Below are positions 42,288 to 60,087 of a stretch of DNA of 64,000 nucleotides, one piece after another (within the stretch, counting starts at the first letter, position 1; each line of letters starts with the position of its first letter). Under the pieces are notes generated by a model. The model was given only the letters and a program-made list of their open reading frames with translations. It did no database searches and was not told where the DNA came from. Source of the stretch: an uncultured Gammaproteobacteria bacterium (GTDB lineage: Bacteria; Patescibacteriota; Patescibacteriia; UBA9934); assembly GCA_964552565.1 (NCBI GenBank), contig CAZKGL010000001.1, positions 371,061 to 435,060 of the forward strand. Direction: 5' to 3'. The position numbers were made by a program, and so were the translations under genes.

Positions 42288-42332
42288 ATGCTTAGGGGAC
42301 GACGTGAGAGCTGCCGTGCAAAAATACGACGG

Positions 42333-43295: not shown

Positions 43296-43510
43296 GACTT
43301 CATGGTTACGCTACTCAGGCTATTTGGAAGATTTGTTTTTAGGGGTATTTACAGCTTGCTTTGCAATATCAGTTCGACAAATCCCACGTTTAGCGCACGC
43401 ATCCTCACATTCCTGCGCATACTGCGCCTCAAGATACTGAAAGCCGCATTGCTCGCAGGTAAAAAGTGTCTTGTCGTCTTTCTCGACCGTTTTGACCATA
43501 GAGATGGCGA

Positions 43511-43960
43511 TTAGTTTCGAAGCGCTTCTCGTTCTCTGAGAAAGGCCATTTGCGCGTCTTGTAAATGCATAACCGGACGACGTTCTTTGAGATACGCGAC
43601 CGCTTCGTCGGCTGTCTTACCTTGCTCAGCGACAAGATAGGCGGCGACAAGCACAGGCGCTCTTCCATGTCCGTTTTTGCAATGGATGAAGCACGGGATA
43701 TTCTTCCCTGCAAAGAAGCGCAACGCTGCAACGCCGAGATCGGCTTTCTCGTGTGACATAGCAGCATGGTCTTCGGTTGGAAGCCAAAGGAAAAAGTCGA
43801 CGCCGTACGGTTGGTCGATCCGCTCCTTCTCAAGGCTGATGGCAGCGCGCACTCCTCGAGCGATTAATGTATCGTCGAAGTGCGTGACGCAACAGGCATT
43901 CTGACCAATGAAAATCAGTGGGGTTATTTCCGAGTAATCAAAAGATTCGTGAACATGCAT
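43511..43960 (-). CDS. Dual-specificity (Cys-based) protein phosphatase
   Basis: CX5R P-loop HCKNGHGRAP. 149 aa. Last gene of a 4-gene operon. Confidence 0.8.
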   Translation of the reverse strand: MHVHESFDYSEITPLIFIGQNACCVTHFDDTLIARGVRAAISLEKERIDQPYGVDFFLWLPTEDHAAMSHEKADLGVAALRFFAGKNIPCFIHCKNGHGRAPVLVAAYLVAEQGKTADEAVAYLKERRPVMHLQDAQMAFLREREALRN

Positions 43961-43968
43961 AACGTAGT

Positions 43969-44223
43969 TTATGAAGCAATCTTCGCTACTAGCTCTCCTC
44001 GTTGATGCAGGGCTACCACATCATCGTAACCTCCCACGAATTCGTCGCCAATAAAAATCATCGGCACCGTTCTCCAGTTGTATTTTTCGCTCAAAGCCTC
44101 CGCCTCTGCGGCATCTGCAGCAAGGTTCTTTTCCTCAAATGGCACCTTGAGCGAAGTAAAAAGTTGTTTTGCAAGCATGCAATATGCACATCCTGGCGAA
44201 GTGTAAATTGTTACTTGTTTCAT
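43969..44223 (-). CDS. Glutaredoxin
   Basis: 84 aa with a CAYC active site and a TVP...GGYDD glutathione-binding pattern. Its ATG overlaps the upstream TGA. Confidence 0.85.
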   Translation of the reverse strand: MKQVTIYTSPGCAYCMLAKQLFTSLKVPFEEKNLAADAAEAEALSEKYNWRTVPMIFIGDEFVGGYDDVVALHQRGELVAKIAS

Positions 44224-45611
44224 ACAATGGCTTTCACGCTATAAGCGGCGGCACCGACCCCTTCTGCAAATGTCGGATACGCATGAATCATTTTTGCGAT
44301 GGTCGTGTACGGAATATTCGCGAACATCGCGAGCGCAATCTCGTGGACAATCTCAGCCGCAGCCTGACCTACGACGTGGCCGCCGAGCACGTGACCACTT
44401 TCCATGTCGACGATAATTTTTACAAGCCCGTCAGATTCGCCCGTGACGAGCGCCTTGCCGAGCATGGCGTACGGAGCGGTACCGATACCGACTTTCTTGC
44501 CCAGCTTCATCGCTTCTGCTTCCGTCACGCCAACCGACCCAACCTCCGGGGTGCAAAATGTCCCTCGTGGAACAACGCGAAGGTCTGATTGCACAGTATT
44601 GCCTTTTGCTATGTTTGTCGCGGCAATGGTTCCTTGCTCGTGCGCGACGTGGGTGAACAGCATTTGGCCAGCCGCATCGCCCGCAAAGTAGACCGAAGCA
44701 TTGGATATCGACTGCATGAACTCATTCAGTTTTGGCCGACCGCGTTCGTCGAGTGCAATGCTGGCTTTTTCGGGCTCAAGGTCGGCAATGACTGGACGCT
44801 TTCCAACGGCCACGAGAACCGCATTCGCCACGAGCGTTTCGCGTCTCTTTTCAGATCCGAGCTCTATAGTGACACGACGCCCATCTTCGTCCGTTCCCAC
44901 ATCGACAGCCTGAGCTGTGGTAAAAATTTTTACGCCGCGCTTTGTGAAAGCCGCTGCGACAATGCCGGCAATTTCGTCATCTTCACGCGGCAAAATGTGC
45001 GGGGCGAATTCAACTATTGTTACAAGCACGCCAAGTTCCGAGAGGATCTGTGCGGATTCCACGCCGATCGGACCACCACCAATAATGATGATGGATTTCG
45101 GCAACTTTTTCAGCGTTACGATGTCGTCGCTTGTGAGAAAGCCAGACTCTTTCAATCCGGGAATGGGCGGAATTACCGTCTCGGATCCAGTAGCAATAAT
45201 AAAATGTTTTGCAGTAACCCGTTCCTTCCCGACAGCAAGCGTATCGGGTGAAATAAACTTCGCCTTTCCGCGCAAGAGATCGATGCTGAGTCTTTCGAGT
45301 ACGCCCTCGATACGTCCTTCGCCGGTCAACGCATCAACGATGCGAATTTTGCGTTCCATGATTTCGCGAAGACGAAACGAAACGCGCGGGATACGGAGGC
45401 CAAACTCCCCCGCACGGTGGGCGAGGGAGATGACTTCCGACGATCTCAATAATGCCTTTGTCGGCACACAGCCCCAGTTTGGGCATTCGCCGCCAAGACG
45501 CTTCGCGGCCTCAACGAGCGCGATACTCTTTACCCCTGCTTCGCGCGCGGTTTCTGCCGCGGAGAGACCAGCGGAACCGGAGCCGATGATGATGAGATCG
45601 TATGAGCGCAT
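44220..45611 (-). CDS. Class I pyridine nucleotide-disulfide oxidoreductase (Lpd/glutathione-reductase-like)
   Basis: FAD motif GSGSAG, redox-active CPNWGC, an NAD(P) GxGxxG motif and a C-terminal HAYPTFAE His-Glu dyad. There is no MerA CC tail. Confidence 0.85.
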   Translation of the reverse strand: MRSYDLIIIGSGSAGLSAAETAREAGVKSIALVEAAKRLGGECPNWGCVPTKALLRSSEVISLAHRAGEFGLRIPRVSFRLREIMERKIRIVDALTGEGRIEGVLERLSIDLLRGKAKFISPDTLAVGKERVTAKHFIIATGSETVIPPIPGLKESGFLTSDDIVTLKKLPKSIIIIGGGPIGVESAQILSELGVLVTIVEFAPHILPREDDEIAGIVAAAFTKRGVKIFTTAQAVDVGTDEDGRRVTIELGSEKRRETLVANAVLVAVGKRPVIADLEPEKASIALDERGRPKLNEFMQSISNASVYFAGDAAGQMLFTHVAHEQGTIAATNIAKGNTVQSDLRVVPRGTFCTPEVGSVGVTEAEAMKLGKKVGIGTAPYAMLGKALVTGESDGLVKIIVDMESGHVLGGHVVGQAAAEIVHEIALAMFANIPYTTIAKMIHAYPTFAEGVGAAAYSVKAIV

Positions 45612-45615
45612 ACCA

Positions 45616-45780
45616 CTACATTGCCGCGTGATCGTGCTGTACGCCTTCTGCGCACTTCTGGCAGGCCGCAGGAGCGGGGGCACTTTCCGCACCAGCACAC
45701 ATTGGACACATTTCAGCTTCGTTCTCTGGCTTTTGCGGTGCCGGAACCGCTCCGCCGCAGGCTGTACAAACTTTTCCCAT
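45616..45780 (-). CDS. Small Cys-rich protein (three CxxC pairs)
   Basis: MGKVCTACGG...CPMCAG...CQKCAEG. First gene of the operon; ends 4 nt before the reductase start. Confidence 0.4.
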   Translation of the reverse strand: MGKVCTACGGAVPAPQKPENEAEMCPMCAGAESAPAPAACQKCAEGVQHDHAAM

Positions 45781-45893
45781 AGAAAAGAAATAAAGAATCA
45801 ACAACGACAGTATATCGCTTTGCAAGAAATACGCTTGTAGCACAGGCTACAAAACATTGGCTCCGCTGTGGATGAGTGGTACTCTCTCAGCAT

Positions 45894-46556
45894 ATGGATC
45901 GTGTCTGGTACATCAAGAATTTCAATCTCTTCGCTGGTATTCCCAAGGAGGAAATCATGCGCATTGCTGCCTCCGCCAACGATGAGCGACATAACAGTCG
46001 TGCGCTGTTGTATACGCCGCACGACCAGGAAACACGGCTCTTTCTGGTAAAGGAGGGTGAGGTATCGCTGTACCACGTCAAGGATGGGAAGCGCTTTGTT
46101 TTTGACGTCATGGGTCCGGGGACATTGTTTGGCAATGTTGGTATGCAGGAAGGTTCACTTTCTCATTTTGCAGAAGCCGCCGAAGGCACCCGCATCTGCA
46201 CGTTTTCTTCGGCTGACTTTCAGCAGATTATTTCGGCATATCCCGTGGTCATGATGCGGGCGTTTTCGTCACTTGCACATCGACTGGAAGATTACGAAAC
46301 GAAACTCGGAGAGACGCTGTCGGACGCGAAAGAAAAGATTTTGCACGAAATTGAGCGATATGAACAAAAGCGCACACCAAAATTTCTTGAGTGGCTTTCG
46401 GGTGAGGCGACGAAGCGTCAACTTACGCACGAGCATCTCGCAAAATTAACCGGACTTAATCGAGTGACGGTTACGCGGGCAATTCATGATCTTCAGGCCG
46501 AGGGAGAGATTGACGTCGACGAGCACGGAAAAATTGTTATCCACAATAGTTTGTAG
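45894..46556 (+). CDS. Crp/Fnr-family transcriptional regulator
   Basis: cNMP-binding beta-roll followed by a C-terminal HTH (LTHEHLAKLTGLNRVTVTRAIHDLQ). No Fnr-type Cys cluster. Divergent from the Grx operon. Confidence 0.8.
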   Translation: MDRVWYIKNFNLFAGIPKEEIMRIAASANDERHNSRALLYTPHDQETRLFLVKEGEVSLYHVKDGKRFVFDVMGPGTLFGNVGMQEGSLSHFAEAAEGTRICTFSSADFQQIISAYPVVMMRAFSSLAHRLEDYETKLGETLSDAKEKILHEIERYEQKRTPKFLEWLSGEATKRQLTHEHLAKLTGLNRVTVTRAIHDLQAEGEIDVDEHGKIVIHNSL

Positions 46557-46603
46557 TATTTGTTACCGACATATATATGAGCATATCGCTATGATGTGCC
46601 CAT

Positions 46604-47086
46604 ATGAAAAATACTCTTTTTGCGATCGGAGGAATCATTGTCCTTATTGGGCTAGGATACGCAGTCTTTTCACGTCCGTCTGCTACAGACGTACCGCAAC
46701 CGGCTACGACGTCTGGCGTTGAAGCGTCGCCCACTGCGCCAACGGGCGAACAGGTCGTCTATGTAGCCGGGGCGTATCAGGATTTTTCGCAGACCGCGTA
46801 TGACTCCGCGCTTGCTGACGGCAAAACCGTTATTCTTGATTTTCACGCAGACTGGTGCCCAACGTGCCAAGTGAATGAGCCGATTATCAAGTCGGTATTT
46901 TCGACGAATACCGATACCAACATCGTCGGATTCAAAGTGAACTACGATACAGAGATCGGACTGAAGAAGGCGTTTAACATTCAGAGTCAGTCCACAATCA
47001 TTAAGACAGTAAAGGACGAGGCCGCAGAACAACTTGGCCCAGGTCCAGTAACAGCCGAAAGTTTCAGCGCATTTATCCAGTCCTAG
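46604..47086 (+). CDS. Membrane-anchored thioredoxin (TlpA/ResA-like)
   Basis: Signal anchor plus WCPTC. Confidence 0.8.
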   Translation: MKNTLFAIGGIIVLIGLGYAVFSRPSATDVPQPATTSGVEASPTAPTGEQVVYVAGAYQDFSQTAYDSALADGKTVILDFHADWCPTCQVNEPIIKSVFSTNTDTNIVGFKVNYDTEIGLKKAFNIQSQSTIIKTVKDEAAEQLGPGPVTAESFSAFIQS

Positions 47087-47090
47087 TAGT

Positions 47091-47795
47091 ATGGGGATGT
47101 TTTTATTGGCGCTTGTCGCCGGTGCTATCACCGTTACGTCACCGTGTATCATCCCCATTCTTCCGATTATTCTTGGGTCGGTACTGAAGGATCATAAGTG
47201 GTATCCCGTGTACCTCGTGCTCGGGATGTCGACGACGTTCACGGTGCTCGGCATCCTGTTTGGTGCCTTTGGTAGTGCACTTCCGATTGATCGCGTTTTC
47301 CTGAATCAACTCGCCATCTGGCTTATCGGCCTCATGGGAATTGTTCTCCTCGTAAAACCACTTGGCGATCTGTTCTCGCGTGGCACATCTATGCTCACGT
47401 CGTGGCTTGGCTCGTATGGTCCGAAAGCAAACCAGCTCGGACAGCCGGGTGAGGCCTTTGCGCTCGGATCGCTCCTTGGCATCGTCTGGGCACCGTGCGC
47501 CGGACCGATCCTCGGGTCAATCATTTTGCTCGCGTCGGGAACCGGAAGTGTCGTAAAGGCCGGACTACTGCTCTTCACGTACTCAATTGGCGCAGGGATC
47601 CCCATGCTCCTCATTGCCTACGGCGGGAAACGAGCAGTAGCGGGTAAACAGTTCATCCAAGAACAATCCGGCAGATTGAAAATGGCATTCGGTGTCGTCT
47701 TGCTTATCTCGGCACTCCTCATGGCAACGGGGGTGTTTCGCGAGCTGGAATCGCTCATCGTGCCGTATGTTCCCACGTGGAGCACGCAACTCTAA
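47091..47795 (+). CDS. ccdA: Cytochrome c biogenesis protein CcdA / DsbD-beta-domain electron transporter
   Basis: Six TM helices with the two conserved Cys (TSPCIIPILP; WAPCAGPILG). Confidence 0.85.
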   Translation: MGMFLLALVAGAITVTSPCIIPILPIILGSVLKDHKWYPVYLVLGMSTTFTVLGILFGAFGSALPIDRVFLNQLAIWLIGLMGIVLLVKPLGDLFSRGTSMLTSWLGSYGPKANQLGQPGEAFALGSLLGIVWAPCAGPILGSIILLASGTGSVVKAGLLLFTYSIGAGIPMLLIAYGGKRAVAGKQFIQEQSGRLKMAFGVVLLISALLMATGVFRELESLIVPYVPTWSTQL

Positions 47796-47816
47796 CATTT
47801 GAATGTCTATCACCCT

Positions 47817-48074
47817 ATGTCGCTACTCGAATTCTATGGCGCTGAATGCCCACATTGCATGGCGATGATGCCGCTCATTGAACGGTTGAAAAAAGAAGGC
47901 TTTGCCATTGAACAGTTTGAAACCTGGCATAACGAGGAAAACGCCAACAAGTTGAAGGAATACGACAAAGGTTTCTGCGGCGGCGTGCCGTTCTTCATAA
48001 ACACCGAAAGCGGAAAATGGATCTGCGGATCTGAATCCTATGAAGCGCTCCGAGCTTGGGCAGAAGGAAAATAG
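47817..48074 (+). CDS. Thioredoxin-fold protein with a CPHC motif
   Basis: The GAECPHC motif. Short, ~85 aa. Confidence 0.6.
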   Translation: MSLLEFYGAECPHCMAMMPLIERLKKEGFAIEQFETWHNEENANKLKEYDKGFCGGVPFFINTESGKWICGSESYEALRAWAEGK

Positions 48075-48441
48075 CAGCGCTAGGGAAATTCTTCGCATAA
48101 CGGGCATTCCCATTTTGCTTGCATCCCTGTGCTGCCTGAGTCCGGTTATCCTTGTGCTTTTAGGACTCACGACAACGACGTTTGCCGCTTCATTGTCCGA
48201 CACCCTTTACGGACAATATCGCTGGGTGTTCCGACTCGTGGGCTTCGTCGCACTTGCCGTATCGATTATCTGGCATCTGCGAAAGCGAAGGAAGATTTGC
48301 ACATTGGATCAGGCGAAGCGCCAGCGACACAAAATTGTTAACCTCATACTGCTCTCCGTTATCACCGCTATTCTTGGATATGTTTTCTGGCTCTACGTGG
48401 TCGTGGAATATATCGGCAAACTTCTCAATATTTGGAACTAA
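48040..48441 (+). CDS. Small membrane protein with vicinal Cys in TM1 (MerT/MerF-like)
   Basis: ILLASLCCLSPVILVLLG resembles the MerT CC helix. The start overlaps the previous gene by 35 nt. Confidence 0.4.
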   Translation: MKRSELGQKENSSAREILRITGIPILLASLCCLSPVILVLLGLTTTTFAASLSDTLYGQYRWVFRLVGFVALAVSIIWHLRKRRKICTLDQAKRQRHKIVNLILLSVITAILGYVFWLYVVVEYIGKLLNIWN

Positions 48442-48458
48442 TATAACCCCTTCAATCT

Positions 48459-49175
48459 ATGACAGAAAATACAACGCCGCCCGCTAGCTTCTTCAGTGGA
48501 AATCCTAAGATGATATTCGTTTTTGGTCTCGTGGCAGGCATCGCACTCACGTCCTTGGCCGGAGATCTGTTCGCGAATACTGGATCTGCAACCGGTACAG
48601 ACACCGCCGTCGTGAATGCGAACAATACCGGGCCATCTGCTGCGGCCTCCGCAAAAACGCTTGCCGCAGTAACGGAGGACGACCACGTACGAGGCGATCT
48701 TGAAAAAGCAAAGGTCGTGCTTATCGAGTACTCGGATTACGAGTGCCCTTTTTGCGGTAGGCACCATCCCACTATGCTCGATGTAGCAGAGCAATACGGC
48801 GACGATGTCGCTTGGGTGTATCGCCATTTTCCGCTCACGTCCATTCATCCGCAAGCAATGCCAGCAGCGCTCGCCGCCGAGTGTGCGAACGAACAAGGAA
48901 AGTTTTGGGAATATACGGATGCGCTCTTTGAAAACCAGAGCGATCTCAGCTCTTCATTTTATACCGAACTTGCTGGTGACCTTGGCATGAATACGTCAAA
49001 ATTCAGCGACTGCGTGGAAAGCGAGAAATATGCGGCGAGAGTAAAGGCCGATATCGCGTCAGGACAAGCCGCTGGTGCCACGGGCACGCCAGCAACATTC
49101 GTGAATGGCACGTTGGTGTCTGGCGCTGTACCGCTTTCGACATTCACAGGCCTTATAGACGCGGCACTCAAATAA
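48459..49175 (+). CDS. DsbA/BdbD-like thiol-disulfide oxidoreductase
   Basis: TM anchor, CPFC active site and the DSBA-fold cis-Pro region. Confidence 0.8.
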   Translation: MTENTTPPASFFSGNPKMIFVFGLVAGIALTSLAGDLFANTGSATGTDTAVVNANNTGPSAAASAKTLAAVTEDDHVRGDLEKAKVVLIEYSDYECPFCGRHHPTMLDVAEQYGDDVAWVYRHFPLTSIHPQAMPAALAAECANEQGKFWEYTDALFENQSDLSSSFYTELAGDLGMNTSKFSDCVESEKYAARVKADIASGQAAGATGTPATFVNGTLVSGAVPLSTFTGLIDAALK

Positions 49176-49257
49176 ACGAAAAATCGTTGCCGTGGTAGAA
49201 TTCACTCAAAGGTTCCTGACTTTTCAAAAATAATTAACTCATCACCTCACGAAAAAT

Positions 49258-49623
49258 ATGCAAATACTTTTCACCGTCGGTCACATCGTTCTCGGTCTGT
49301 TCTTCCTCATGATGGGCATGATGCACTTCATGAAGATGCGTGACATGACCGCGTATGCCAACATGAAGGGATTGCCAATGCCGTCGCTGTCCGTCGCGGT
49401 AACTGGAATGGTTCTTGCTCTTGGCGGCGCAGGAGTAATTTTTCAAGTCGCGCTCCCTTGGGCATACGGAGCACTGGTCGTATTCCTCGTATCAGCGGCA
49501 TTCCTCATGCATAACTTCTGGGCTGCCAAGGATGCACAGTCAAAGATGAACGACATGGTGAACTTCCAGAAAAATCTCGCCCTTGCCGCCGCCCTCTTGA
49601 TGCTCATCACGCTTCAAGCGTAA
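49258..49623 (+). CDS. DoxX-family membrane protein (island copy)
   Basis: 121 aa. Its C-terminus NFQKNLALAAALLMLITLQA is nearly identical to that of the core DoxX at 36350-36730. Confidence 0.8.
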   Translation: MQILFTVGHIVLGLFFLMMGMMHFMKMRDMTAYANMKGLPMPSLSVAVTGMVLALGGAGVIFQVALPWAYGALVVFLVSAAFLMHNFWAAKDAQSKMNDMVNFQKNLALAAALLMLITLQA

Positions 49624-49632
49624 TTCAATAGT

Positions 49633-50040
49633 GTGAGCAACCTCGTTTTTATTTATCAGGCAAACTCTGGCATTCTTGCGAATATACCGGGAGCCATCGC
49701 GAAAGCGTTTGGCGGAAAGAGCGTGTGTTCGCTGTGCAACATCACGAACGGCCCCTTTCGTGAAAAACCTGAATGGGAAACGTTCGTCGCGTCACTGCAA
49801 GAAAAGCCCGAGATCTATCACGCTAACGAAATACCGATTGACATTGCGTCATTCCTAAAAAAGAACGAGCACCCCATTCCCGTTGTCCTTGAGCGAAATG
49901 GATTTGAATTTACGGTCGCCATGTCTTCCGACGACCTCGATGCATGTCAGGCGGATCCCACCTGCCTCGCCAAGAAACTTACATCCTATACACGCACCTC
50001 GTGTAGCAATGGGGTGTGTTCGCTGAAACAGCCGAGTTGA
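49633..50040 (+). CDS. Hypothetical CxxC protein (possible thioredoxin-fold)
   Basis: GTG start and a CSLC motif. 135 aa. Confidence 0.4.
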   Translation: MSNLVFIYQANSGILANIPGAIAKAFGGKSVCSLCNITNGPFREKPEWETFVASLQEKPEIYHANEIPIDIASFLKKNEHPIPVVLERNGFEFTVAMSSDDLDACQADPTCLAKKLTSYTRTSCSNGVCSLKQPS

Positions 50041-50242
50041 GCTCAGAAAATATGATAGGAAGAATATTAGAAGTTTCCGGTGAGCTTTGCATCGGTTATC
50101 TCGCCACACGAGTGCACAGCCGCGTCGTGAAGGAACATCGCATTGATGCTGCTGTTCTTCGTGAAATGAAAATGGAAAAACATGTAGGAACGGTCGGGAT
50201 GGCACTTATCCTTGTTGGATTTATTTTAGAATCACAAGGAAT

Positions 50243-51592
50243 ATGATTTTACAAAATTGGTGGTACACAACCTTATTGGACGCATCGGTGCGCCACCAGC
50301 CGCCTTTGCGTGGTGCGCTCAAGTGCGACGTTGCGGTTATCGGCGGCGGCATGGCAGGACTCCACGCGGCGCTCCAGCTGAGCCGGATGGGTAAAAAAGT
50401 AATCCTTCTCGAACGAAACATTTGTGGCGGAAGTTCCACAGGAAAAAGCGCAGGGTTTCTTACGCCAGATAGCGAGCTCGAACTCAGCCAACTTGTCAGA
50501 AGATACGGCGTAGACGGTGCAAAAACTGTCTGGAATATGCCCGTGCAAGGCGTCAAACTTATCAAGCAGACGATCAACGATTTTAATATTGCGTGCGATT
50601 TTCGCAAACAAGATAGTCTATTCGTCGGTATTGGTAAGAGTGGCGCCGAGGACGTCGCGAGTGAGGCAAAATCAAGAAAGAGATTGGGATTTGCCTCCAC
50701 AAAGTACAACAAAGACGAGCTCAAAAAGGTGAACGCAGGGCTTGGCTACGAGGCGGGTATCAGATACGACGATACCTATTCCATAAACCCGCTGCTCTAC
50801 GCGCAGGGTTTGAAGCAAGCGTTAATGGACAGCGGCGTACAGATTTTTGAAAGCACCGAGGTGGTGCGCATTGAAGACGGGGCTGCGATTACCCATCTTG
50901 GATCCGTCATGGCGGATAATTTTATCGTTTGCATCGACAAAATGAAGTCGGAATTCAGTTCCGTCGCGAAGCAGACCTATCATGCTCAAACATTTCTTTC
51001 CATTAGCGAACCGCTAGACGACAACGATATTGCAGCAATATTCCCGGATGGCGAAGTGCAGTGTTGGGATTCACGACTTGTCTACAGCTATTATCGACTG
51101 ACACCCGATAAGCGGCTGTTGCTCGGCGGCGGGAGCGCGCTAACGACTTTTTCTCCTAACGATATAAATTCCCCGGCCATCATCAATCAGGTGATCGCGG
51201 ACTTCAAAAAAAGGTTTCCAAAGCTGGAACACGTCGCATTTGTTCAGTACTGGCCTGGGCGCATCGATACCACGAAGGACATCATGCCAATCATCGATTG
51301 GTTTGACGCGCCGAACGTTCAGTATGTTTTGGGCTGTGTCGGTTTGCCGTGGGCAAGTTTTTGCGGAAAGTATGCCGCAGAGCGTCTGTATGAACCACGC
51401 ATCTGTCAAAAGTACTGCATGTATCTCGGTGCTCATCGCTCATTTTTCATCCCGCCATGGCTTCAGAGTATCGTTGGTAAAATGATCAGTTTTTCTCTCA
51501 ACAATGCGTACGCCAAATACTTCGAGAAGGATAGGCCTCAAATGAGCCAGATCATGCATGCCCACAAAGGCGAGCTTCCTTCCCATCGATAA
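50243..51592 (+). CDS. FAD-dependent oxidoreductase (DAO family)
   Basis: N-terminal VAVIGGGMAGLHAALQL Rossmann motif. 449 aa. Confidence 0.8.
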   Translation: MILQNWWYTTLLDASVRHQPPLRGALKCDVAVIGGGMAGLHAALQLSRMGKKVILLERNICGGSSTGKSAGFLTPDSELELSQLVRRYGVDGAKTVWNMPVQGVKLIKQTINDFNIACDFRKQDSLFVGIGKSGAEDVASEAKSRKRLGFASTKYNKDELKKVNAGLGYEAGIRYDDTYSINPLLYAQGLKQALMDSGVQIFESTEVVRIEDGAAITHLGSVMADNFIVCIDKMKSEFSSVAKQTYHAQTFLSISEPLDDNDIAAIFPDGEVQCWDSRLVYSYYRLTPDKRLLLGGGSALTTFSPNDINSPAIINQVIADFKKRFPKLEHVAFVQYWPGRIDTTKDIMPIIDWFDAPNVQYVLGCVGLPWASFCGKYAAERLYEPRICQKYCMYLGAHRSFFIPPWLQSIVGKMISFSLNNAYAKYFEKDRPQMSQIMHAHKGELPSHR

Positions 51593-51595
51593 TAG

Positions 51596-51967
51596 CTAGA
51601 CGATAATTTTCAATTCGAGTTCTATCGTATCCTCTGCGAGAACATGCTCTTTCTTACGTATGCCAGATTTGAGTGGGAGCACATAGCTTCCTAACTTCGA
51701 GTCTGGAAAAATTGACGTCTTCCAGAGTGTTTTCCCGAGCGTCATTTCAACACGAATCGATCCCCATCCTTTTTTCAGTGGCGAAAACCGCGTTTTGATC
51801 TCGCGCGATATCTTTTTTGGCAGAGTAACAAAATGCCATCCGGCCATGCCGGGATACAACCATACTTTCGCTCGAAACGAATAATTTGTTTTCATAGACC
51901 CGGTTGTTTGAGAAAAATCCGACGGTTTTGCGTCCTGGGTGGTTCCGCTTTCTGGATCGAATGCCAA
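51596..51967 (-). CDS. DUF1905-like small protein
   Basis: AKVWLYPGMAGWHFVTLP...GWGSIRV pattern; family recalled from memory. Confidence 0.45.
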   Translation of the reverse strand: MAFDPESGTTQDAKPSDFSQTTGSMKTNYSFRAKVWLYPGMAGWHFVTLPKKISREIKTRFSPLKKGWGSIRVEMTLGKTLWKTSIFPDSKLGSYVLPLKSGIRKKEHVLAEDTIELELKIIV

Positions 51968-52150
51968 GAGTCGCTATTTGCTCAAGCTTTAAACAAAAAA
52001 TCGCCATTTTTCAATGACGACTTTTTGACAAGGCATGTGGGTCACCTCACACGCCTTCTCATGGCTCCGGGGGTGGTCGGGTATTCGAACCTCTATCGAA
52101 CAAGCAAAAAACAGGGACGAATTCGCAATCGTGCGAACTTGGTAGTGTCG

Positions 52151-55100
52151 CTACTGCAACTCGCCACCCGCCTTGAAGGATCTAATGTCTGCAGCCACGC
52201 GGCGCAGGTGTACGGGCAGTAACCGCATCCGAATCGCGAGAAGTGATACAGCGATCTCGATCGCCTTATTCGCTTGCGGATGCCTACCAATGTACCGAAG
52301 AAGGCTATGCAGTATTCCTCGCTCCCTAATGCCAAGACGCTTGTCCGTATAGATATACATTATCAAATCGCCAAGTATCGTCCCGATCGGCTGGACGGAG
52401 GTCTCCTTCTTCACCAACTCATTCATCAATAGCTCAACATTTTGGTCAAGCAGATTGAAGTTCGCAACTTCGAGATAGCGAACAATCATTGCGGTGTCAA
52501 TCGTTACATACGAATATCCGCACTTCAACAATTCCATTCTCCCGGCGTCATACTCCTCCTCAGACACCAGATTATGTTTACGCGCATTTCGAAGAAGTTC
52601 CTGACTTGTTGCAATGTCGAGACCCCCCAATGTTTTTATTGCATCACGGCCGAGGTACGAATCGTCACACACTACAGGTAGCCCTCTCTGTGAAGCAATT
52701 ACCATAGTCGTGCCCGATGATCCGTACTGCTCCTCAAACTGCTTCCTATCAGGAGAAACTGGACGTGCGTAGCCGACTCGTGTACAGGTCTCAAAGAAAG
52801 CTTGCACCTTTGTCAGAAGCTGCAGACTTTTCTCGTACGCCTCGGCGCTGACATCATTCATCATGACTGAGCCGTCGGCGCTGCCCTGTAGAAAAGATTG
52901 CCCTTTCTTAGAAAGCTTCGTGTACTCCTCGATTAGAGAGGAGAGCTGATCGCAAGTAAACTGATCAACATACACTTGCGTAAATGCCTTCTTTATCAAA
53001 TCCAAACGATCGAGGCGCGCCAATGTCAGAGCGGCACTCATGTCTACGATCACCTCTTTTTCCTTAAAAAGGATATTCTCACTTTCCGCAGCCTCTTGCG
53101 TATTTCCGAGGAAGGCATAAACCGGGAAGTCTTTCGCGGTTATCACATCGGACCACACCTCGAAATACTTCTTGGAGATGAGAGTTGAGATCTGATTCAA
53201 GGATAGGCGCTTGGCCTTATACTCCGCGATGACTTTATCGATCGCCTTGGCCCTTGCTGAGACCACCTCACCGATTTTCTTCATTCCATCTTGATCGGCT
53301 GAAAACTTCATGATCGCCTCTTGTCCCGGGGCGCGATTCTCGAAATTTTCCATTATGTCCTGATAGTACCTGACGTGCTTATCCTGAACAGCACCTTCCT
53401 GATCACTTACATGGTGAAAGACAGAGATGTACGCCAACTGAATCTCAGGGTTAGTGAAGTTTCTATCCAAAGCACTGAAGGCTGTTTCAAGTGCTTCGGC
53501 ATATTCGCCATTCAAGACAAGAAGGTTCGCAACTTGCATGAGTTGCTCCGCTTCGCTCGCCGAGTGCAACGCCTTCTTGATGTAAGGTGAATAATCTGCG
53601 ATAGACCCCGAAAGTCTAAATCTGCACTCAAGGAAGCCTATAACATCACCGAAAACGAAGTGATCCTCATCTATTAACTTTTTGTATTTCTCTGCTGCGG
53701 TCTCAAGGTCTCCAAGTACATGGGTGAAGTTCGCCGAAACCCGGAGAAGAGTGTCGGATTGAAGCGCCTTTTCGCTAGCCAAAACCATCAGAGCTTGCAA
53801 CTGTTCATACTTCTTTGCGTTGAATAGAGCAATTGCATATCTTTCAAAATTTTCTGCCGACGGATCTCCCTCGATAGCCAAGGCTAAAATTTCTGCGGCC
53901 TTCTCAAAATCTCCTATCTTCAAGAGAAAGGTTGAGTAATCATCGAGAATTATTTGATGAATTGGATTTGCCTCTACGGCCGCGTCCATCGCACGCTCGA
54001 AGTATTCTCCTGAAAGTTCGAGCTGATTTTGGTGCGCATGAAATATGGCAACCGATCTAAACGCCAAAGGATTGTCCGGGCATTCGGCGAGCAACTCATC
54101 TCTAACCTTTAGAGCCTTATCGGTCTCTTGGAGATCCAAATGGCCTAACATCAACAATCGCATCGTTTCAATATAAACCTCATCTCGATCGTCGCTCCTA
54201 TTCCCAGACAACAGTTCGACTGTCTTGCCCGGCTTCTTGCTGAAGAGGTACGCGGCCGCCAAATCCCTCCTCAAGTGATCTGGTAACGTGGTAATTTTTG
54301 AATACGCCTCTAACGCTTCGATCACGTATTCGTAACGATGGGAGATAAGACCCGCTCTCGACTTATTCACCAACGCCTCTATATTTTCGGCATCAAGTGA
54401 AAAGGCCCGATTAGCATATTCGATGCAGTCGTCATATTGTTTAAGAACCAAGTTGGCGGCCGATAGGTTGGTATAGAGGGGTGCCTCAAACTGTTTTGGC
54501 GCTTGCCCCTCAAACAACTTTACAGCCTCGGTCAAAGCCTTTTTCGCTTCTTCAAAATCCTTACAGATTGCATCCGGGATAATCGCGCCTTGTAATCTTC
54601 CTTCAAGATCCCTCGAGTGAAGCAGTAAAATTTCTTGAGCGAAAAACAATTTATACCAAACCTCCTTATCATCGCTTTCCTTGAGTTTTTTATATGCATC
54701 AGCTGCGCCCTTGTGGTCACGCAACTTACTCGCCTTCAGCGCGAAAATAAAGTCTTTGGTTGCTTGATTTTCAATGTCAGCAATGTCCCGATCAACTGCA
54801 TCGATGTCATTCAAGTCAAGATGGCAACGCGCGCGAATAGACAAGGCATGATCTCTATCCTGTAGATCTCTCGCTAGTACCATGTTAATCATTCCGAGAG
54901 CAGTTCCCGGATCCTTGGCGGCCAAGAATGCCTGTGCGTGGTTTGCGCCCGCCTTCTCATTTTCCGAATCAAGTGCGATTGCTTTTTCAAATAACAATTT
55001 AGCTTTATCCGTTTCGCCAAGCCGCAATTCGCATAGTCCAAGATTGTTATGAATCTTGGACATAGTCTTCTTGCCGACTCCACCGGCAGTCGGAAGATCC

Positions 55101-55771
55101 GCAAGAATATCGTACCCATCGCGGCGGGCGCCCGTGTAATCTCCCTCATCTATTTTCTTGACCATCCGCTTGTTTCTTGCATCGAATAGACCCGAAAGTT
55201 CCCCACTCTCTATTACAGAAGATTGCAAAGAGGCGACAGCTGCCTGAAGCGCCGCAAGCTGTTGCTGTGTTGTTTCAAAGATATCCGGATGACGTTCCTT
55301 TACTGTCGGATGCTGATCTGCCAGTTGCCTCAAATGCTCAGCGGAGTACACGAGGTATTTGCAGTTGTTCTCTCGTGTCAGCTCTGCAAGAACATCGTGC
55401 TGCTCCTTACGCAGTGCGGCAGGGGTAACAAACACCCAAGTATCAAACGGGTACATCCCACGTTGTTCGATCGCCTTACTGAAATCAGAACGAATTTTCT
55501 TGTTGTAAGCATCGTTCGACGACCGGGTACTCAAAAGCGGAGTATAAATTGCGAAAAAAATCTTGGCTGATGTTGTGTACCCATCCATCCCATCATCGCC
55601 ACCCCTGTCGTCAATAACAAGAAAATCTTGATGCTCCGCGAGCAAGAGATCTTTGACTAACGCTTCAAATACTTTGTTGTTGTCAATGTGCTCGATTTTC
55701 TTCGTGTACTTATATGCGTCACTATCCGGCATATTCTTATCGTAAGGAAGAACCCTGCCGACATGAAACAC
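52151..55771 (-). CDS. 1206-aa TPR-repeat array protein with an N-terminal Mrr/restriction-endonuclease-like domain
   Basis: More than 900 aa of TPR-like helical repeats. The N-terminus FEALVKDLLLAEHQDFLVIDDRGGDDGMDGY resembles the Mrr_cat signature. Low GC. Confidence 0.75.
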   Translation of the reverse strand: MFHVGRVLPYDKNMPDSDAYKYTKKIEHIDNNKVFEALVKDLLLAEHQDFLVIDDRGGDDGMDGYTTSAKIFFAIYTPLLSTRSSNDAYNKKIRSDFSKAIEQRGMYPFDTWVFVTPAALRKEQHDVLAELTRENNCKYLVYSAEHLRQLADQHPTVKERHPDIFETTQQQLAALQAAVASLQSSVIESGELSGLFDARNKRMVKKIDEGDYTGARRDGYDILADLPTAGGVGKKTMSKIHNNLGLCELRLGETDKAKLLFEKAIALDSENEKAGANHAQAFLAAKDPGTALGMINMVLARDLQDRDHALSIRARCHLDLNDIDAVDRDIADIENQATKDFIFALKASKLRDHKGAADAYKKLKESDDKEVWYKLFFAQEILLLHSRDLEGRLQGAIIPDAICKDFEEAKKALTEAVKLFEGQAPKQFEAPLYTNLSAANLVLKQYDDCIEYANRAFSLDAENIEALVNKSRAGLISHRYEYVIEALEAYSKITTLPDHLRRDLAAAYLFSKKPGKTVELLSGNRSDDRDEVYIETMRLLMLGHLDLQETDKALKVRDELLAECPDNPLAFRSVAIFHAHQNQLELSGEYFERAMDAAVEANPIHQIILDDYSTFLLKIGDFEKAAEILALAIEGDPSAENFERYAIALFNAKKYEQLQALMVLASEKALQSDTLLRVSANFTHVLGDLETAAEKYKKLIDEDHFVFGDVIGFLECRFRLSGSIADYSPYIKKALHSASEAEQLMQVANLLVLNGEYAEALETAFSALDRNFTNPEIQLAYISVFHHVSDQEGAVQDKHVRYYQDIMENFENRAPGQEAIMKFSADQDGMKKIGEVVSARAKAIDKVIAEYKAKRLSLNQISTLISKKYFEVWSDVITAKDFPVYAFLGNTQEAAESENILFKEKEVIVDMSAALTLARLDRLDLIKKAFTQVYVDQFTCDQLSSLIEEYTKLSKKGQSFLQGSADGSVMMNDVSAEAYEKSLQLLTKVQAFFETCTRVGYARPVSPDRKQFEEQYGSSGTTMVIASQRGLPVVCDDSYLGRDAIKTLGGLDIATSQELLRNARKHNLVSEEEYDAGRMELLKCGYSYVTIDTAMIVRYLEVANFNLLDQNVELLMNELVKKETSVQPIGTILGDLIMYIYTDKRLGIRERGILHSLLRYIGRHPQANKAIEIAVSLLAIRMRLLPVHLRRVAADIRSFKAGGELQ

Positions 55772-55802
55772 CTTTTATGCCTAACTCCGCAACCAAGAGC
55801 TG

Positions 55803-56177
55803 TTACTGCTTGACGATTGCAATCCCCGTCGCCCTATCCCAATAGAATCCAAAGACAAGCATTGCTAAGAACCCGATACCTGTAACAGCAGACAATGCGA
55901 TGATTTCGCGTAGGACGAGACGAAGTAGTGTCGGTCTCGCAAGCGTCTTGCGATCTACTGTGCGCAATTTAAAGAGCCTCTGACCGGGCGTTGCGCCTGA
56001 GTAAGCTGCGAGAGCTAAGCCTGCTAACAAAGCGACCAGAAAAGGCCACATCGCTCGGGACAACGCTTCGTGAAGCAGCGCATCAAAAAGGGCGACCGCC
56101 GTGCCGATGACAAAAAAGTCAATCATGAGAGCCGTGCCGCGCTTAAAATGACCATATTCAAAAATTACTTCGGACAT
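55803..56177 (-). CDS. RDD-family membrane protein
   Basis: 124 aa with 3 TM helices and an RDD-like pattern. Confidence 0.55.
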   Translation of the reverse strand: MSEVIFEYGHFKRGTALMIDFFVIGTAVALFDALLHEALSRAMWPFLVALLAGLALAAYSGATPGQRLFKLRTVDRKTLARPTLLRLVLREIIALSAVTGIGFLAMLVFGFYWDRATGIAIVKQ

Positions 56178-56178
56178 A

Positions 56179-56391
56179 CTATTTTGCCCAGCTTCCGTAA
56201 TGCTCGCAGGCTTCGGCGGCCGTTAGCTTGTTCTCAAGAGCATAGCGGTACTGCGTTTCGCCCATGCAGGCTAGAAAATCACCGCGTGCTTGATTGGGCA
56301 TCACTATAAGACGCCAAACGGCCGTCCCGGTGAGTAATACAATGCACGCGATAGCAACCTTGGTTGCTGTTTGCCTTGATATTTCCTGCAC
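56179..56391 (-). CDS. Small membrane-anchored hypothetical protein
   Basis: 70 aa with an N-terminal TM segment and a Cys pair. Confidence 0.35.
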   Translation of the reverse strand: MQEISRQTATKVAIACIVLLTGTAVWRLIVMPNQARGDFLACMGETQYRYALENKLTAAEACEHYGSWAK

Positions 56392-56955
56392 AAAGCTCGT
56401 TATTTAGAAATAAACAAAAGGACACCCCTGAGGTGTCTAGACCCAAACAGCAGGGCTACTGCCGCTTGTTTTATCAGGGATGCCCGTTACGGCGCACCAA
56501 TAGCCCTAATAAAACTGCCGACAGTTTCCTGTTGGTCAGCGCTGTTGTTTGGATCTAGACAAGATAAGTGTGCCTTAGCAGAGAAAAAGCTGCAAGAAAC
56601 ATACAGATGTGGAAAAGATGCCTTGCCTGATAGGCGTAAGGCGAGCAGAATAGAACCACAACGACTCGGGCCTTGCCCGGGTCAACAGACTGCAAAAGTC
56701 AGCCTTACCCTGAAATCACTTTAGGACGGCCGGACATAGCAGATTGGGAATTTTTCCCGTCTTCTATTTGTCCGGTCGTCCTTTTTGTATGAGTCAGCGC
56801 CTGCTCAAAAAGTTCATCGAGATCTACCACCGCCAATACGGGGTCGAACTCACAGAAGCAGATGCTCGCTCAAAGGCTGCTGATTTTCTCAGTCTCTACC
56901 GCGCAATTGGCGCACCTCAAAACTGAGGGTTTATCCAAGAAACCTGAGAATAAGT

Positions 56956-57204
56956 ATGAAAATTGCACCGAGCTTTTATACATCAAACTTTTACCTCGCA
57001 GCATTCATGCTTGCGAGTGGTTTTACGCTTCAGGGCTACGAACGATCGGATGACGGGAAGGTCACCTTCGTTATCGAAGACGGCGAGAACCGAGAGGAGG
57101 CCGTCGACAGTTTCCACTGCGGAAACCCGCAAGTCGATGCAAGACGTTTTATTGCGGCGATTAGGCAGCTCAAGAGCGGCATTTACGACGGTGCTGCTAC
57201 GTAG
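56956..57204 (+). CDS. DUF5659-like small protein of mobile elements
   Basis: The YTSNFYLAAFMLASGF motif is recalled from memory as typical of this family, which often sits near integrases. Confidence 0.4.
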   Translation: MKIAPSFYTSNFYLAAFMLASGFTLQGYERSDDGKVTFVIEDGENREEAVDSFHCGNPQVDARRFIAAIRQLKSGIYDGAAT

Positions 57205-57224
57205 CTGCGAATTGAAGAGAGCAT

Positions 57225-57815
57225 ATGGATTCGGGTCAATTCATCAAAGTGCCTGTTTACATCGAAGCCGACAAGCGCCTGTCTCCCACGGACAAGGCTG
57301 TCTATATGGCACTTCGAAAACATAGGAACGAACGTTCCGGCGAAGAAGTGTTTCCTTCCCGGGAGCTAATCGGTAAAAGCGTTGGACGCGGTGTGACAAC
57401 GGTGTGGCGTTCACTCAAAAACCTAGCGAACTGTGGGCATATCGTTTGGAAAAGCGGAGCGCAAGGCAGGTCCAATCGCTACCAGTTCACCCATGAAACG
57501 GTAAGCAGTTCACCGGTGCAATCTAGTCATGTCGCCAATGAACCACTCAGCAGTTCATCCGCGAACCACGAATCAGAATCAGGAACCCAAAAACAAGAAT
57601 CAGATAACTCATCACTTTTCTTTCGAGGGGAACTCTGCCTGATCAATGAAGACGGAACCTCCGTTCAGGTTATCGGCAACGACGGCTTCCTCACGCCCTA
57701 CGACGGGAGAAGCGACTCAGACTTTCGATATCGAAACCTTACAGGACCCAAAGCCCTTCGTGTCGCCCTCCACGACTACCAGATGCAAGCATTTGGTTTC
57801 GCAAGAAATAGCTAA
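57225..57815 (+). CDS. Winged-helix/HTH protein (phage replication- or regulator-like)
   Basis: LSPTDKAVYMALRKH...FPSRELIGKSVGRGVTTVWRSLKNL fits the HTH_36 pattern. Confidence 0.5.
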   Translation: MDSGQFIKVPVYIEADKRLSPTDKAVYMALRKHRNERSGEEVFPSRELIGKSVGRGVTTVWRSLKNLANCGHIVWKSGAQGRSNRYQFTHETVSSSPVQSSHVANEPLSSSSANHESESGTQKQESDNSSLFFRGELCLINEDGTSVQVIGNDGFLTPYDGRSDSDFRYRNLTGPKALRVALHDYQMQAFGFARNS

Positions 57816-57895
57816 GACTAGCACCTTATTCAGTTATTCAAGTGATGGCGCGAGACCCGCTGTTGGGATAAAATCGAAGAAACTAGAATAAGCAT

Positions 57896-59515
57896 ATGCA
57901 ATCAGCCGTTGTCATTTACGCCCGCAAGTCGAGCGAACAAGAGGATCGTCAGATCTTGAGTATCGATTCTCAGATCGCCGAGCTTAAGCAACTTGCCCTG
58001 AAGTTTGAGGTAACCCCGAAGTACGTTATTAGCGAATCCTTCAGCGCAAAGGCTCCCGGTCGAGAAAAGTTCAACGAGATGGTTGCTCTTATTGAGGCTG
58101 GAAAAGTAGACACGATTTTTGCTTGGCATCCCGATCGTCTGTCTCGCAATGCAGTAGACGCTGCGTGGCTTATTCACCTTCTTGATACTGGTAAGCTCAA
58201 AGCAATCATCACGCCGAGCCAATCTTTCAAAAATACTCCGAACGATAAGTTTCTTTTCAACCTCCTCACCAGTCAGGCGAAGCTTGAAAACGACAACAAG
58301 AGTATCAACGTAAAACGAGGGTTGAAGACTAAAGTCGAGATGGGCTGCTACCCCGGTGTTGCTCCGCTTGGCTATCTGAACAACAAGTACAAGGAGAAGG
58401 GTAAGAAGGACGTTTATCTCGATGCTGAACGTGGCCCGATCCTCCGCAAGATCTTCGACCTAATTCTTGAAGGCATGCCTCCCATGCGAGCCTTGGAAAT
58501 CGCAAATGAAAAGCTTGACTTCCGCACCCCTCACGGAAATAAGCTCGCACGTACGACACTCTACCGTGTTCTCACGATGCCCTTTTATTACGGTGAGTTC
58601 GAATACCCGAAAGGTAGTGGCAAATGGTACAAGGGCAACCACGAACCCCTGATCACAGTTGAGGAATACGACCGAGTTCAAACTTTTCTTGGACGAGACG
58701 GTAGACCACGGGCGCGCCAGAGCCTCTATAACTTCCCCTACAAGGCGATGATGCGCTGCGGGGAGTGTGGCGCCGCTATTACCATTGAGCGCAAGGTAAA
58801 GCGTCAGAAGAATGGTAATGTCCACGAGTACGTCTATTATCACTGTACGAAGCGCATTAAAAGGGACTGCACGCAGAAATGCGTCGAGGCAAAAGAGATT
58901 GATGACCAGATCGCCGAGACCTTGGCTTCCGTGAAGATCCCTCAGGAGTTCCATGAATGGGCCATTGAGGCGTTACGCGAGGAAAATGAAGCCGAGACCT
59001 CGTCACGCGCGCAGACTATGAAACGCCAACGCTCCTCATATGACGAGACGGTTCGGATGATGGATGAGCTGCTCGATATGCGCCTCAAGAAACAGATCTC
59101 CGATGAGCAGTTCGCTGACAAGAAGGCATCCTTGGAACACGATAAAACGCGCTATAAGGAGCTTCTCAACGATACCGACCGTAGGATCGACTGGTGGATG
59201 AATGTCGCGGGGGAGGCCATGCAATTCCTTTGTGAAGCCCAACAGAAATTTATCGAAGGCGACGCAGACCGAAAGACCCGCATTCTGAACGCCCTTGGTT
59301 CGAACTTCACCCTTCTCGACGGAAAACTAGTCGTTTCTGTGAAGGAAACGCTTCTTTCGGTTACCGAGCAATATCACCAGATGAAACAGGCTGGAAAAAT
59401 GTTCGAACCTCTGAAATTTGGCTCTACAAAACAAAGAACCGACACCATTTCTGATGTCAGTTCCATGTGGCTCCGGGGGTGGGGTTCGAACCCACGACCA
59501 TCTCGTTACACTTGA
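57896..59515 (+). CDS. Large serine recombinase (integrase)
   Basis: Resolvase catalytic region YARKSSEQEDRQ...SIDSQ, a recombinase domain, a zinc ribbon CGECG...HCTKRIKRDC and a coiled coil. 539 aa. Confidence 0.9.
   Translation: MQSAVVIYARKSSEQEDRQILSIDSQIAELKQLALKFEVTPKYVISESFSAKAPGREKFNEMVALIEAGKVDTIFAWHPDRLSRNAVDAAWLIHLLDTGKLKAIITPSQSFKNTPNDKFLFNLLTSQAKLENDNKSINVKRGLKTKVEMGCYPGVAPLGYLNNKYKEKGKKDVYLDAERGPILRKIFDLILEGMPPMRALEIANEKLDFRTPHGNKLARTTLYRVLTMPFYYGEFEYPKGSGKWYKGNHEPLITVEEYDRVQTFLGRDGRPRARQSLYNFPYKAMMRCGECGAAITIERKVKRQKNGNVHEYVYYHCTKRIKRDCTQKCVEAKEIDDQIAETLASVKIPQEFHEWAIEALREENEAETSSRAQTMKRQRSSYDETVRMMDELLDMRLKKQISDEQFADKKASLEHDKTRYKELLNDTDRRIDWWMNVAGEAMQFLCEAQQKFIEGDADRKTRILNALGSNFTLLDGKLVVSVKETLLSVTEQYHQMKQAGKMFEPLKFGSTKQRTDTISDVSSMWLRGWGSNPRPSRYT
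59468..59510 (-). tRNA. tRNA 3' exon-like half (anticodon-stem 3' strand, variable loop, T-arm GTGGGTTCGAACCCCAC, acceptor CCCCGGA-G-CCA)
   Basis: The reverse complement reads tgtaacgagatggtcgtgggttcgaaccccacccccggagcca. It pairs with the 5' half at 60056-60087. Confidence 0.5.
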
Positions 59516-59703
59516 TCCATCGGTTTCCCGACAGCGTGGACTATATCTTCATCCGTCTCTTGTGAGCGAGGATGCAGGGCGCTTCCGGCTCTGAAGCCGT
59601 ACTCCCGTGAGGGATAGTCTCTGAACCTTCATCGCTTTTTCAAGCGACGCTTGGCTGCTGATTACCCTGCGTAAGCGAGGGCTTCCAGCAATTCACCCTG
59701 TGG

Positions 59704-59943
59704 TCATTCCGACGTCTCCGTCGGAAGCTGCGTTATGCCCGCATGCAATTCACGATGACAATTTGCGCAGATGAGAATGCATTCCGCAATCTCCTTCTCG
59801 ATCGCTGCCCACGATCTCGTATATCCACGCGCCGAGATGCCGAAAGATTTCTTCTTCGGATCTCGATGGTGGATATCGAGGGCTTACGGGCACCGATCAT
59901 ATCCGCAAATCTGACATCGTCCACCAAGCTTCGCGACTGCCAT
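59704..59943 (-). pseudogene. HNH endonuclease ORF with an in-frame TAA (between CQICGYDRCP and ALDIHHRDP...CANCHRELH)
   Basis: The hand-translated single frame contains complete HNH motifs. It is interrupted by TAA at 59884-59886. Confidence 0.6.
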
Positions 59944-60055
59944 TTCGCGGACCTTTCGTCGGCGATTGGCAACTGCTCGCTTGATGGCTTCTGCACGCTG
60001 GGCGTAGGTTCGCCGTTCTTTCATACCGCTAGTGTATCGAAGAAGGCGTGTCCAC

Positions 60056-60087
60056 AGCGAGCCGCTCTGCCACTGAGCTACCCCGGA
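60056..60087 (-). tRNA. tRNA 5' exon-like half (acceptor TCCGGGG, D-arm GCTCAGTGGCAGAGC, anticodon-stem 5' strand)
   Basis: Reverse complement tccggggtagctcagtggcagagcggctcgct. The acceptor is complementary to the 3' half lying 545 nt away. Confidence 0.5.

Follow-up and report, generated by a model that had tools for sequence, protein, structure and literature searches.

A 64,000-nucleotide stretch of contig CAZKGL010000001.1 (assembly GCA_964552565.1, positions 371,061 to 435,060 of the forward strand), referred to here in its whole length as the window, was analysed around a single large gene on the minus strand. The open reading frame (ORF) of this gene ran uninterrupted exactly from 52151 to 55771, with the stop codon at 52151-52153 and 1206 codons counted from a GTG at 55771. 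From N- to C-terminus the encoded protein featured a domain with a probable restriction-endonuclease-type (REase) fold, a long array of tetratricopeptide repeats (TPR) and a conserved C-terminal module that includes a PIN nuclease domain. Judged by sequence, the gene is a member of the TPR-GreA/B-C-PIN (TGP) conflict family, within the REase-headed class and without the GreA/B C-terminal domain (GreA/B-C) that contributes to the family name. An initial annotation of this DNA had described a 1206-aa protein, and the ORF span and codon count were exact, but the likely start of the gene is the ATG at 55732, which gives 1193 aa. The NCBI call for the same gene (P0001, 1193 aa) uses this ATG, which was favoured because alignments place the N-terminal ends of homologues at ORF residue ~24-29. 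Residue numbers below are those of the ORF counted from the GTG. The ORF is not a chance frame, since about 800 clusters (50% identity) matched its C-terminal module at E<=1e-3.

The C-terminal part of the protein (residues 788-1206) was compared exhaustively by HMMER with 1.84 billion representatives. This gave 801 clusters at E<=1e-3, of which 260 reached E<=1e-10. The alignments almost always extended across the full 419 residues (most of the proteins being 1150-1300 aa in length), so the last ~420 residues constitute a conserved module rather than further TPR. An AlphaFold model of this module (m38a96e3fb5c3, from a 24-sequence alignment) had a predicted local distance difference test score (pLDDT) of 88.9 and consisted of a helical linker, an α/β domain and an all-α tail. 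The linker subdomain (residues ~798-903, 53063..53380, minus strand), delimited by the model and by sequence comparison, begins at the family motif (K/R)Y(V/I)xxFQ, which reads H-V-R-Y-Y-Q in the window protein. The α/β domain is the PIN nuclease domain (residues ~906-1048, 52628..53056, minus strand), as indicated by a Pfam PF20698 (PIN-TPR-GreABC) match at residues 908-1040 (E=4.2e-11, 43.7 bits against a cutoff of 27.8), by Foldseek matches to the PIN proteins PAE2754 (prob 1.0), SSO1118, 3i8o and 3ix7, and by the family-conserved acidic residues D910, D941, D1036 and D1037, all of which were kept. The C-terminal all-α domain (residues ~1049-1206, 52154..52627, minus strand) is conserved alongside the PIN domain across the family, and no solved structure resembled it.

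This PIN nuclease, above the Pfam cutoff, had been overlooked in the initial annotation, which assigned more than 900 aa to TPR-like repeats. Repeats are present, but the TPR or α-helical repeat array occupied only ~580 aa (residues ~200-785, 53417..55174, minus strand, with inferred outer limits) and residues ~798-1206 belong to the separate conserved module. Pfam matches within the array were TPR_2 (239-271), TPR_14 (538-571) and TPR_12 (573-635), and a long linker helix (residues 168-191) precedes it. The TPR matches in homologues cover ~190-770 in the same layout. The statement that the protein has no NTPase domain was borne out, as searches of Pfam, NCBIfam and PADLOC gave no P-loop or NTPase family and the window protein has no Walker A pattern.

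The architecture had been regarded as one without a named system, which was wrong, since it falls in the TGP family, which was described by Kaur et al. (eLife 2021, PMC8195603), is represented in Pfam by PF20698 and has REase-headed forms listed in the published census; the accompanying defence-type reading is consistent with the family and with the genomic contexts described below. In that paper, the constant region of the family is given as TPR repeats, GreA/B-C and a new version of the PIN domain. A variable head of any of 13 kinds comes first, among them "DNase (REase, HNH)", PNPase, TIR, SIR2, EAD and peptidase types, and the genes are said to be mostly stand-alone. In the model proposed there, GreA/B-C docks on a virus-hijacked RNA polymerase and the PIN domain cuts the extruded transcript, and on failure of this step the N-terminal effector triggers cell death. 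The source table of the paper already includes REase+TPR+PIN (6 string hits) and TPR+PIN (358), and the main-text passages available contain no discussion of forms without GreA/B-C. By phylum name, the TGP table has no entry for Patescibacteria or Saccharibacteria and lists Parcubacteria only in SPRY rows.

The window protein resembles this family in its PIN domain, the whole ~400-aa C-terminal module, the long TPR region, a variable head (of the REase class) and the lack of an NTPase, and its gene is likewise mostly of the stand-alone type. It differs in lacking GreA/B-C, the proposed RNA-polymerase docking element. Because it shares the constant PIN module and fails one name-giving feature of the family, it was filed as a GreA/B-C-less member. 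Pfam GreA_GreB had no match in the window protein, and a hidden Markov model (HMM) of GreA/B-C, built iteratively from 107 family domains, gave 0.2 bits with all filters off. The same HMM detected the domain in 88 of 117 long family members and not in the other 29; it was found in 0 of 13 REase-headed proteins and in none of the REase-headed ORFs of all 25 related loci (locus numbers below begin with L). In members that carry GreA_GreB the domain ends just ahead of the (K/R)Y(V/I)xxFQ motif; in the window protein, as in P0017, only ~12-16 residues separate the last TPR helix from this motif. Both kinds of member were seen side by side in a Pyrinomonadaceae contig (L020), where two family genes are adjacent at 1..2673 (minus strand) and 2755..3453 (plus strand), one bearing GreA/B-C (partial, 891 aa) and the other REase-headed and without it.

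The REase-type head recurs in a defined subset of the family. Thirteen of the 151 proteins obtained from the search with the C-terminal module share the N-terminal ~165 residues with the window protein, and a pattern scan of GTDB genomes gave 19 additional loci with an N-terminal REase-type domain. In every complete case this domain heads a protein of ~1185-1235 aa bearing the same C-terminal module. Other heads in the family sample were PNP_UDP and SIR2, both by Pfam, and HNH-like, Cap4-like and helical or hydrophobic types recognised by sequence inspection only. When the full protein was put through a word-indexed search for homologues, TPR words swamped the output, which consisted of the query and one TPR protein. 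In the same search the C-terminal 369 aa gave no match at all, the query included, and the N-terminal alignment gave only six short proteins or fragments.

The N-terminal domain (residues ~24-163, 55283..55702, minus strand) was delimited by an AlphaFold2 (AF2) model, Foldseek and conservation in 29 subfamily sequences. The model (mb25da9b2ba8f, pLDDT 85.6) has the order α-β-β-β-α-β-α-β with an α-β-β-β-α-β core, and its top Foldseek match in the PDB was the restriction endonuclease EcoT38I (E=6.7e-4, TM-score 0.44). Further PDB matches were RPB5 (subunit E of RNA polymerases), Can2, the Avs4 chain 8dgf_B, N.BspD6I, Cap4 and MUS81-EME1, and most of the proteins matched are PD-(D/E)xK-type nucleases. 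The strand order of the model and these matches agree with the αβββαβ fold of PD-(D/E)xK enzymes, and the assignment of the domain to this restriction-endonuclease-type fold is good but not airtight because the TM-scores are modest (0.44). An Mrr-type nuclease had been predicted for this part of the protein and AlphaFold with a structure comparison had been suggested as the check. The prediction holds at the fold level, given the nuclease-type model with EcoT38I as best PDB match and the weak Mrr_cat matches of 2 of 13 homologues (best E=0.0015). At the sequence level, the window protein had no match to Pfam Mrr_cat (PF04471) even at E<=10, let alone at the model cutoff. PDB sequence searches with the N-terminal sequence, with profile A1 and with profile A2 gave nothing meaningful.

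The two stretches on which that prediction was based are present at ORF residues 35-43 (FEALVKDLL) and 54-65 (DDRGGDDGMDGY). Like Mrr_cat, the domain has the α-β-β-β-α-β core, a helix 1 that ends in an acidic residue, a loop of the GDxGxDG type leading to β2 and a hydrophobic β4 with a T after it. Residues D55, G58, D59, G61, D63, G64, Y65, P78, K92, W112, F114 and T116 are invariant in the 29 subfamily sequences and all were kept in the window protein, as were the near-invariant E46, D49, D96 and K99 (26-28 of 29, with D96 and K99 in 28). The difference from Mrr_cat lies in β3, where the catalytic (E/Q)xK is replaced by A74-I75-Y76 in the window protein and by Q/A-x-Y/F throughout the 29 sequences. 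The earlier remark that a QxK was not obvious was therefore correct and applies to the entire subfamily, not merely to the window copy. A relocated catalytic lysine is possible, with K92 on the next helix as the candidate. The tripeptide "PEK" that follows β3 in most relatives was also considered as the missing catalytic motif and was rejected; the window protein has PLL at this place, and a catalytic role is unlikely because relatives have K, R, Q or D at the E position.

The REase-type domain was the best-conserved region of the subfamily, with 51% mean pairwise identity against 28-39% elsewhere, which argues that it is functional, with DNA cutting as a putative activity. The fold could instead be non-catalytic and act as a nucleic-acid- or ligand-binding sensor or as a docking domain, leaving the PIN domain as the sole catalytic effector. 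Such a role would accord with the Q/A-x-Y/F pattern, as no subfamily member has the β3 (D/E)xK lysine, with the missing Pfam Mrr_cat match of the window protein, and with the existence of catalytically dead REase folds, RPB5 (subunit E) being among the top structural matches. We consider it rather unlikely, however, since the dense cluster of invariant D55, D59 and D63, together with the invariant K92 and with D96 and K99 (28/29 each) on the helix after it, suits a metal-dependent site with a relocated lysine, clear enzymes fill the same position elsewhere in the family (SIR2 and PNP by Pfam and an HNH-like head) and conservation within the protein is highest in this domain.

Avs4 likewise combines a nuclease head of the REase type at its N-terminus with a long sensor of helical repeats, and an Avs4 chain (PDB 8DGF) was among the structural matches of the N-terminal domain. 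Avs proteins differ from the window protein in having a central STAND ATPase that drives oligomerisation, whereas the window protein has no NTPase and carries the additional C-terminal PIN module.

The surroundings of the related genes were compared across 149 neighbour ORFs in 15 loci. The recurrent families were serine recombinases (6), DNA methyltransferases, LexA/S24, ResIII and HTH_36, that is, mobile-element and restriction-modification (R-M) families only, with housekeeping genes interspersed and no conserved partner gene, as expected of a stand-alone gene. A homologous serine recombinase was located <=6 kb from the REase-TPR-PIN gene in L006 (40% identity), L007, L012, L014, L016 (E=2.5e-128), L017 and L019, and with a weak match in L003 there were 8 recombinase-adjacent loci in all. 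The relative in L002 adjoins DndB, a D12 methyltransferase and DUF4238, that in L004 adjoins a 1659-aa NACHT protein and a ResIII-DUF559 helicase, and that in L022 is preceded by a type I R-M operon, as is a truncated copy in L026-28. The truncated copy (P0153, 271 aa) consists of the REase-type domain, the linker and the first TPR only and follows directly after the type I R-M operon (HsdM-HsdS-HsdR-YgjP) in the slot that the full-length gene occupies in L022. As it is present on 12 contigs, it would be a stable remnant or a short form.

Genome-derived relatives were mostly from Patescibacteria, including Nomurabacteria, Paceibacterota, Saccharibacteria, Moraniibacteriota and Gracilibacteria, and the remainder from some Acidobacteriota, Gammaproteobacteria and Fimbriimonadales. 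These contexts and this distribution bear on two other explanations of the gene. TPR and PIN domains are found in RNA-processing proteins and relatives have some housekeeping genes beside them (SHMT, Pta, YceG), as might be expected if the protein were a housekeeping TPR scaffold with an RNA-processing PIN domain, but the patchy phyletic distribution, the low-GC island described below, the swappable heads and the mobile-element and R-M contexts make this role very improbable. The gene could also be a selfish module of its island that kills cells losing the island or excludes competing elements, in line with its recurrence beside large serine recombinases on small islands and its two potential toxic nuclease domains. 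This was judged improbable, as no conserved antitoxin-like partner was found and many relatives lie without a recombinase beside R-M genes, and such a role would overlap rather than conflict with one in defence.

Two small genes accompany the large gene on the same strand. An RDD-family membrane protein gene (55803..56177, minus strand; Pfam RDD E=4e-9) ends 32 bp before the GTG, and a 70-aa ORF with one hydrophobic segment and no family match (56179..56391, minus strand) has a stop that overlaps the RDD start. The two had been noted as lying downstream on the same strand, and the strand was right, but they are located upstream (5') because the large ORF reads on the minus strand. Upstream of the 70-aa ORF, the window at ~56415..56575 (minus strand) contains a hairpin-rich fold of -76.9 kcal/mol (z = -6.3, 0 of 200 shuffles as good), after which comes a terminator-like hairpin at 56437..56421 with a G+C-rich stem and a T-run. 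Rfam gave no match to this structure at E<=1, and the related loci did not resemble it in DNA sequence.

The only experimentally examined relative is Agp of E. coli ECOR25, which shares the constant TPR and PIN architecture with the window protein. Agp and its neighbour Bab, a small membrane-targeting protein encoded beside this TGP gene, protect E. coli from T5-like phages by abortive infection, and protection by Agp is abolished by mutations in GreA/B-C and PIN (bioRxiv 10.1101/2024.11.07.622273). Agp has an N-terminal BASS11 amyloid motif, which it shares with the C-terminus of the adjacent Bell-type membrane protein Bab, signals to Bab and needs GreA/B-C; in contrast, the window protein has a REase-fold head and neither an amyloid motif, a Bab-like neighbour nor GreA/B-C. 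The upstream small proteins are of the RDD type or unclassified, the large protein starts with a folded domain of the REase type, and a comparison of residues 1-60 with the two upstream small proteins for a shared motif of the BASS11 type gave no significant similarity.

It is conceivable that the locus is a two- or three-gene system of the Bab/Agp kind in which the 70-aa ORF and the RDD protein are killing effectors triggered by the large protein, as the three ORFs are tightly packed on one strand and Bab is likewise a small membrane-targeting protein next to a TGP gene. The chance of this is small, however, because no RDD or 70-aa ORF homologue was found near any of the 25 related loci (0/25), the N-terminus shares no motif with the small proteins and has an enzyme-type head in place of the amyloid motif, and Kaur et al. 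(PMC8195603) call the family mostly stand-alone.

The large gene lies within an ~18 kb low-GC stretch (approximately 42000..60000) with 47-53% GC against ~62-64% in most of the remaining window. Divergent from it are an HTH_36 DNA-binding protein gene (57225..57815, plus strand), with a homologue in the same position in L007, and a large serine recombinase gene (57896..59515, plus strand; Resolvase, Recombinase and Zn_ribbon_recom domains), which is likely the integrase of the island. The right edge of the island is marked by a tRNA gene (59468..60087, minus strand) that is split in its anticodon loop by a group I intron of ~531 nt. The intron core (59517..59798) matched Rfam RF00028 with 78 bits. 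The split tRNA was missed by ARAGORN at default settings and was called tRNA-His(gtg) when introns were allowed, with splice points and identity uncertain. No second copy of the tRNA 3' segment, such as would mark the other end of the island as a repeat, was found within 3 mismatches. Other island genes encode a dual-specificity phosphatase (43511..43960), a pyridine-nucleotide-disulfide reductase (44220..45698), a Crp-type regulator (45876..46556), thioredoxin (46604..47086), DsbD (47091..47795), a MerT-like protein (48040..48441), DsbA (48459..49175) and DoxX (49258..49623), in addition to an FAD oxidoreductase and DUF1905. This context is best explained if the large gene was acquired horizontally, as cargo of an integrative island that carries a serine recombinase and is inserted at a tRNA gene.

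Several features of the recombinase and its target genes were shared among loci. In the window (59468..59515) and in L012, L014 and L019 the last codons of the serine recombinase gene overlap, in antisense, the 3' end of the neighbouring tRNA or tmRNA gene. The two genes span 2219-2291 and 2233-3951 in L012 (tRNA-Glu), 4621-4693 and 4657-6159 in L014 (tRNA-Asn) and 6907-7297 and 7280-8833 in L019 (tmRNA). The targets in the window and in L007 are intron-split tRNAs, and in L007 (3944-4242 and 4279-5769) the recombinase gene stops just past the intron. The similar split tRNA beside the L007 recombinase has DNA 65% identical to that of the window over 293 nt. These arrangements suggest a Patescibacteria family of tRNA/tmRNA-targeting serine-recombinase islands with the attachment site within the 3' end of the recombinase gene.

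Within the intron of the window, at ~59700..60030 (minus strand), translation by hand gave a frame resembling an HNH homing endonuclease (CQICGYDRCP, a stop, ALDIHHRDP and on to ECILICANCHRELHAG). As an in-frame TAA interrupts it, this frame looks like a decaying or recoded endonuclease gene. In three related Patescibacteria loci the serine recombinase and the REase-TPR-PIN gene have the Rfam LOOT RNA (RF03000) between them, namely L007 (8957-9079, plus strand, 81 bits), L012 (6997-7127, plus strand, 50 bits) and L014 (9585-9717, minus strand, 59 bits). This RNA was absent from the window at E<=1.

The reading that we favour, with a probability of roughly 60%, is that the gene encodes a single-chain, NTPase-less conflict protein, probably anti-phage, of the REase-headed TGP class in which GreA/B-C has been lost. 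On the family model and the Agp precedent, it may act by itself, as a single-gene device for defence or abortive infection. An infection cue would be sensed by the TPR array together with the C-terminal module, which would also form the scaffold, and the PIN domain would be the constant RNase effector that cuts RNA. The N-terminal REase-fold head would be the variable and exchangeable effector, of the DNase type, by which the cell is killed or arrested once infection goes on. As GreA/B-C is lacking, docking into the secondary channel of RNA polymerase is probably not used by this branch and another sensing route would be needed, most likely direct binding of the cue by the TPR array and oligomerisation.

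A number of observations weigh against a defence role of this kind. The validated relative Agp uses an amyloid motif and a partner protein, both of which are absent here, and Agp, on which the experimental support for the family depends, falls outside the REase-headed, GreA/B-C-less branch. The canonical (D/E)xK is missing on β3 of the head, so that nuclease activity is putative, and TM-scores are modest (0.44). Within its subfamily the window protein diverges most. Apart from the large gene, the island carries mercury and thiol-redox cargo, unlike a classical defence island. The phage and plasmid collections searched by tblastn and the viral contigs scanned with profile A1 contained no homologue, and PADLOC had no convincing model, with PDC-M58A (0.0016) and an Argonaute-associated REase-TIR (0.0066) below threshold. 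The main uncertainty concerns the defence role of the GreA/B-C-less branch and the catalytic status of its head.

The family outline, its REase heads and census rows without GreA/B-C were known already, and the present analysis adds a divergent GreA/B-C-less member on a mobile island. What appeared to be an oddity, an unnamed nuclease joined to a giant TPR array, is resolved as belonging to a published family with a Pfam model and one validated anti-phage member. A sizeable share of this family is without GreA/B-C (29/117 of the long members sampled, including every REase-headed relative found), and the published RNA-polymerase-docking model is for this reason not general. We put forward only tentatively that the REase-TPR-PIN proteins lacking GreA/B-C are a branch of their own with its centre in Patescibacteria (the candidate phyla radiation, CPR), which may have given up RNA-polymerase docking for direct sensing by the TPR array and C-terminal module. 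This branch may travel among these bacteria, which have small genomes, as cargo of serine-recombinase islands whose recombinase genes extend into the target tRNA or tmRNA gene at its 3' end. Patescibacteria are thought to be poor in defence systems. Most of the genome-derived relatives are Patescibacteria, and in these organisms the gene travels on small serine-recombinase islands.

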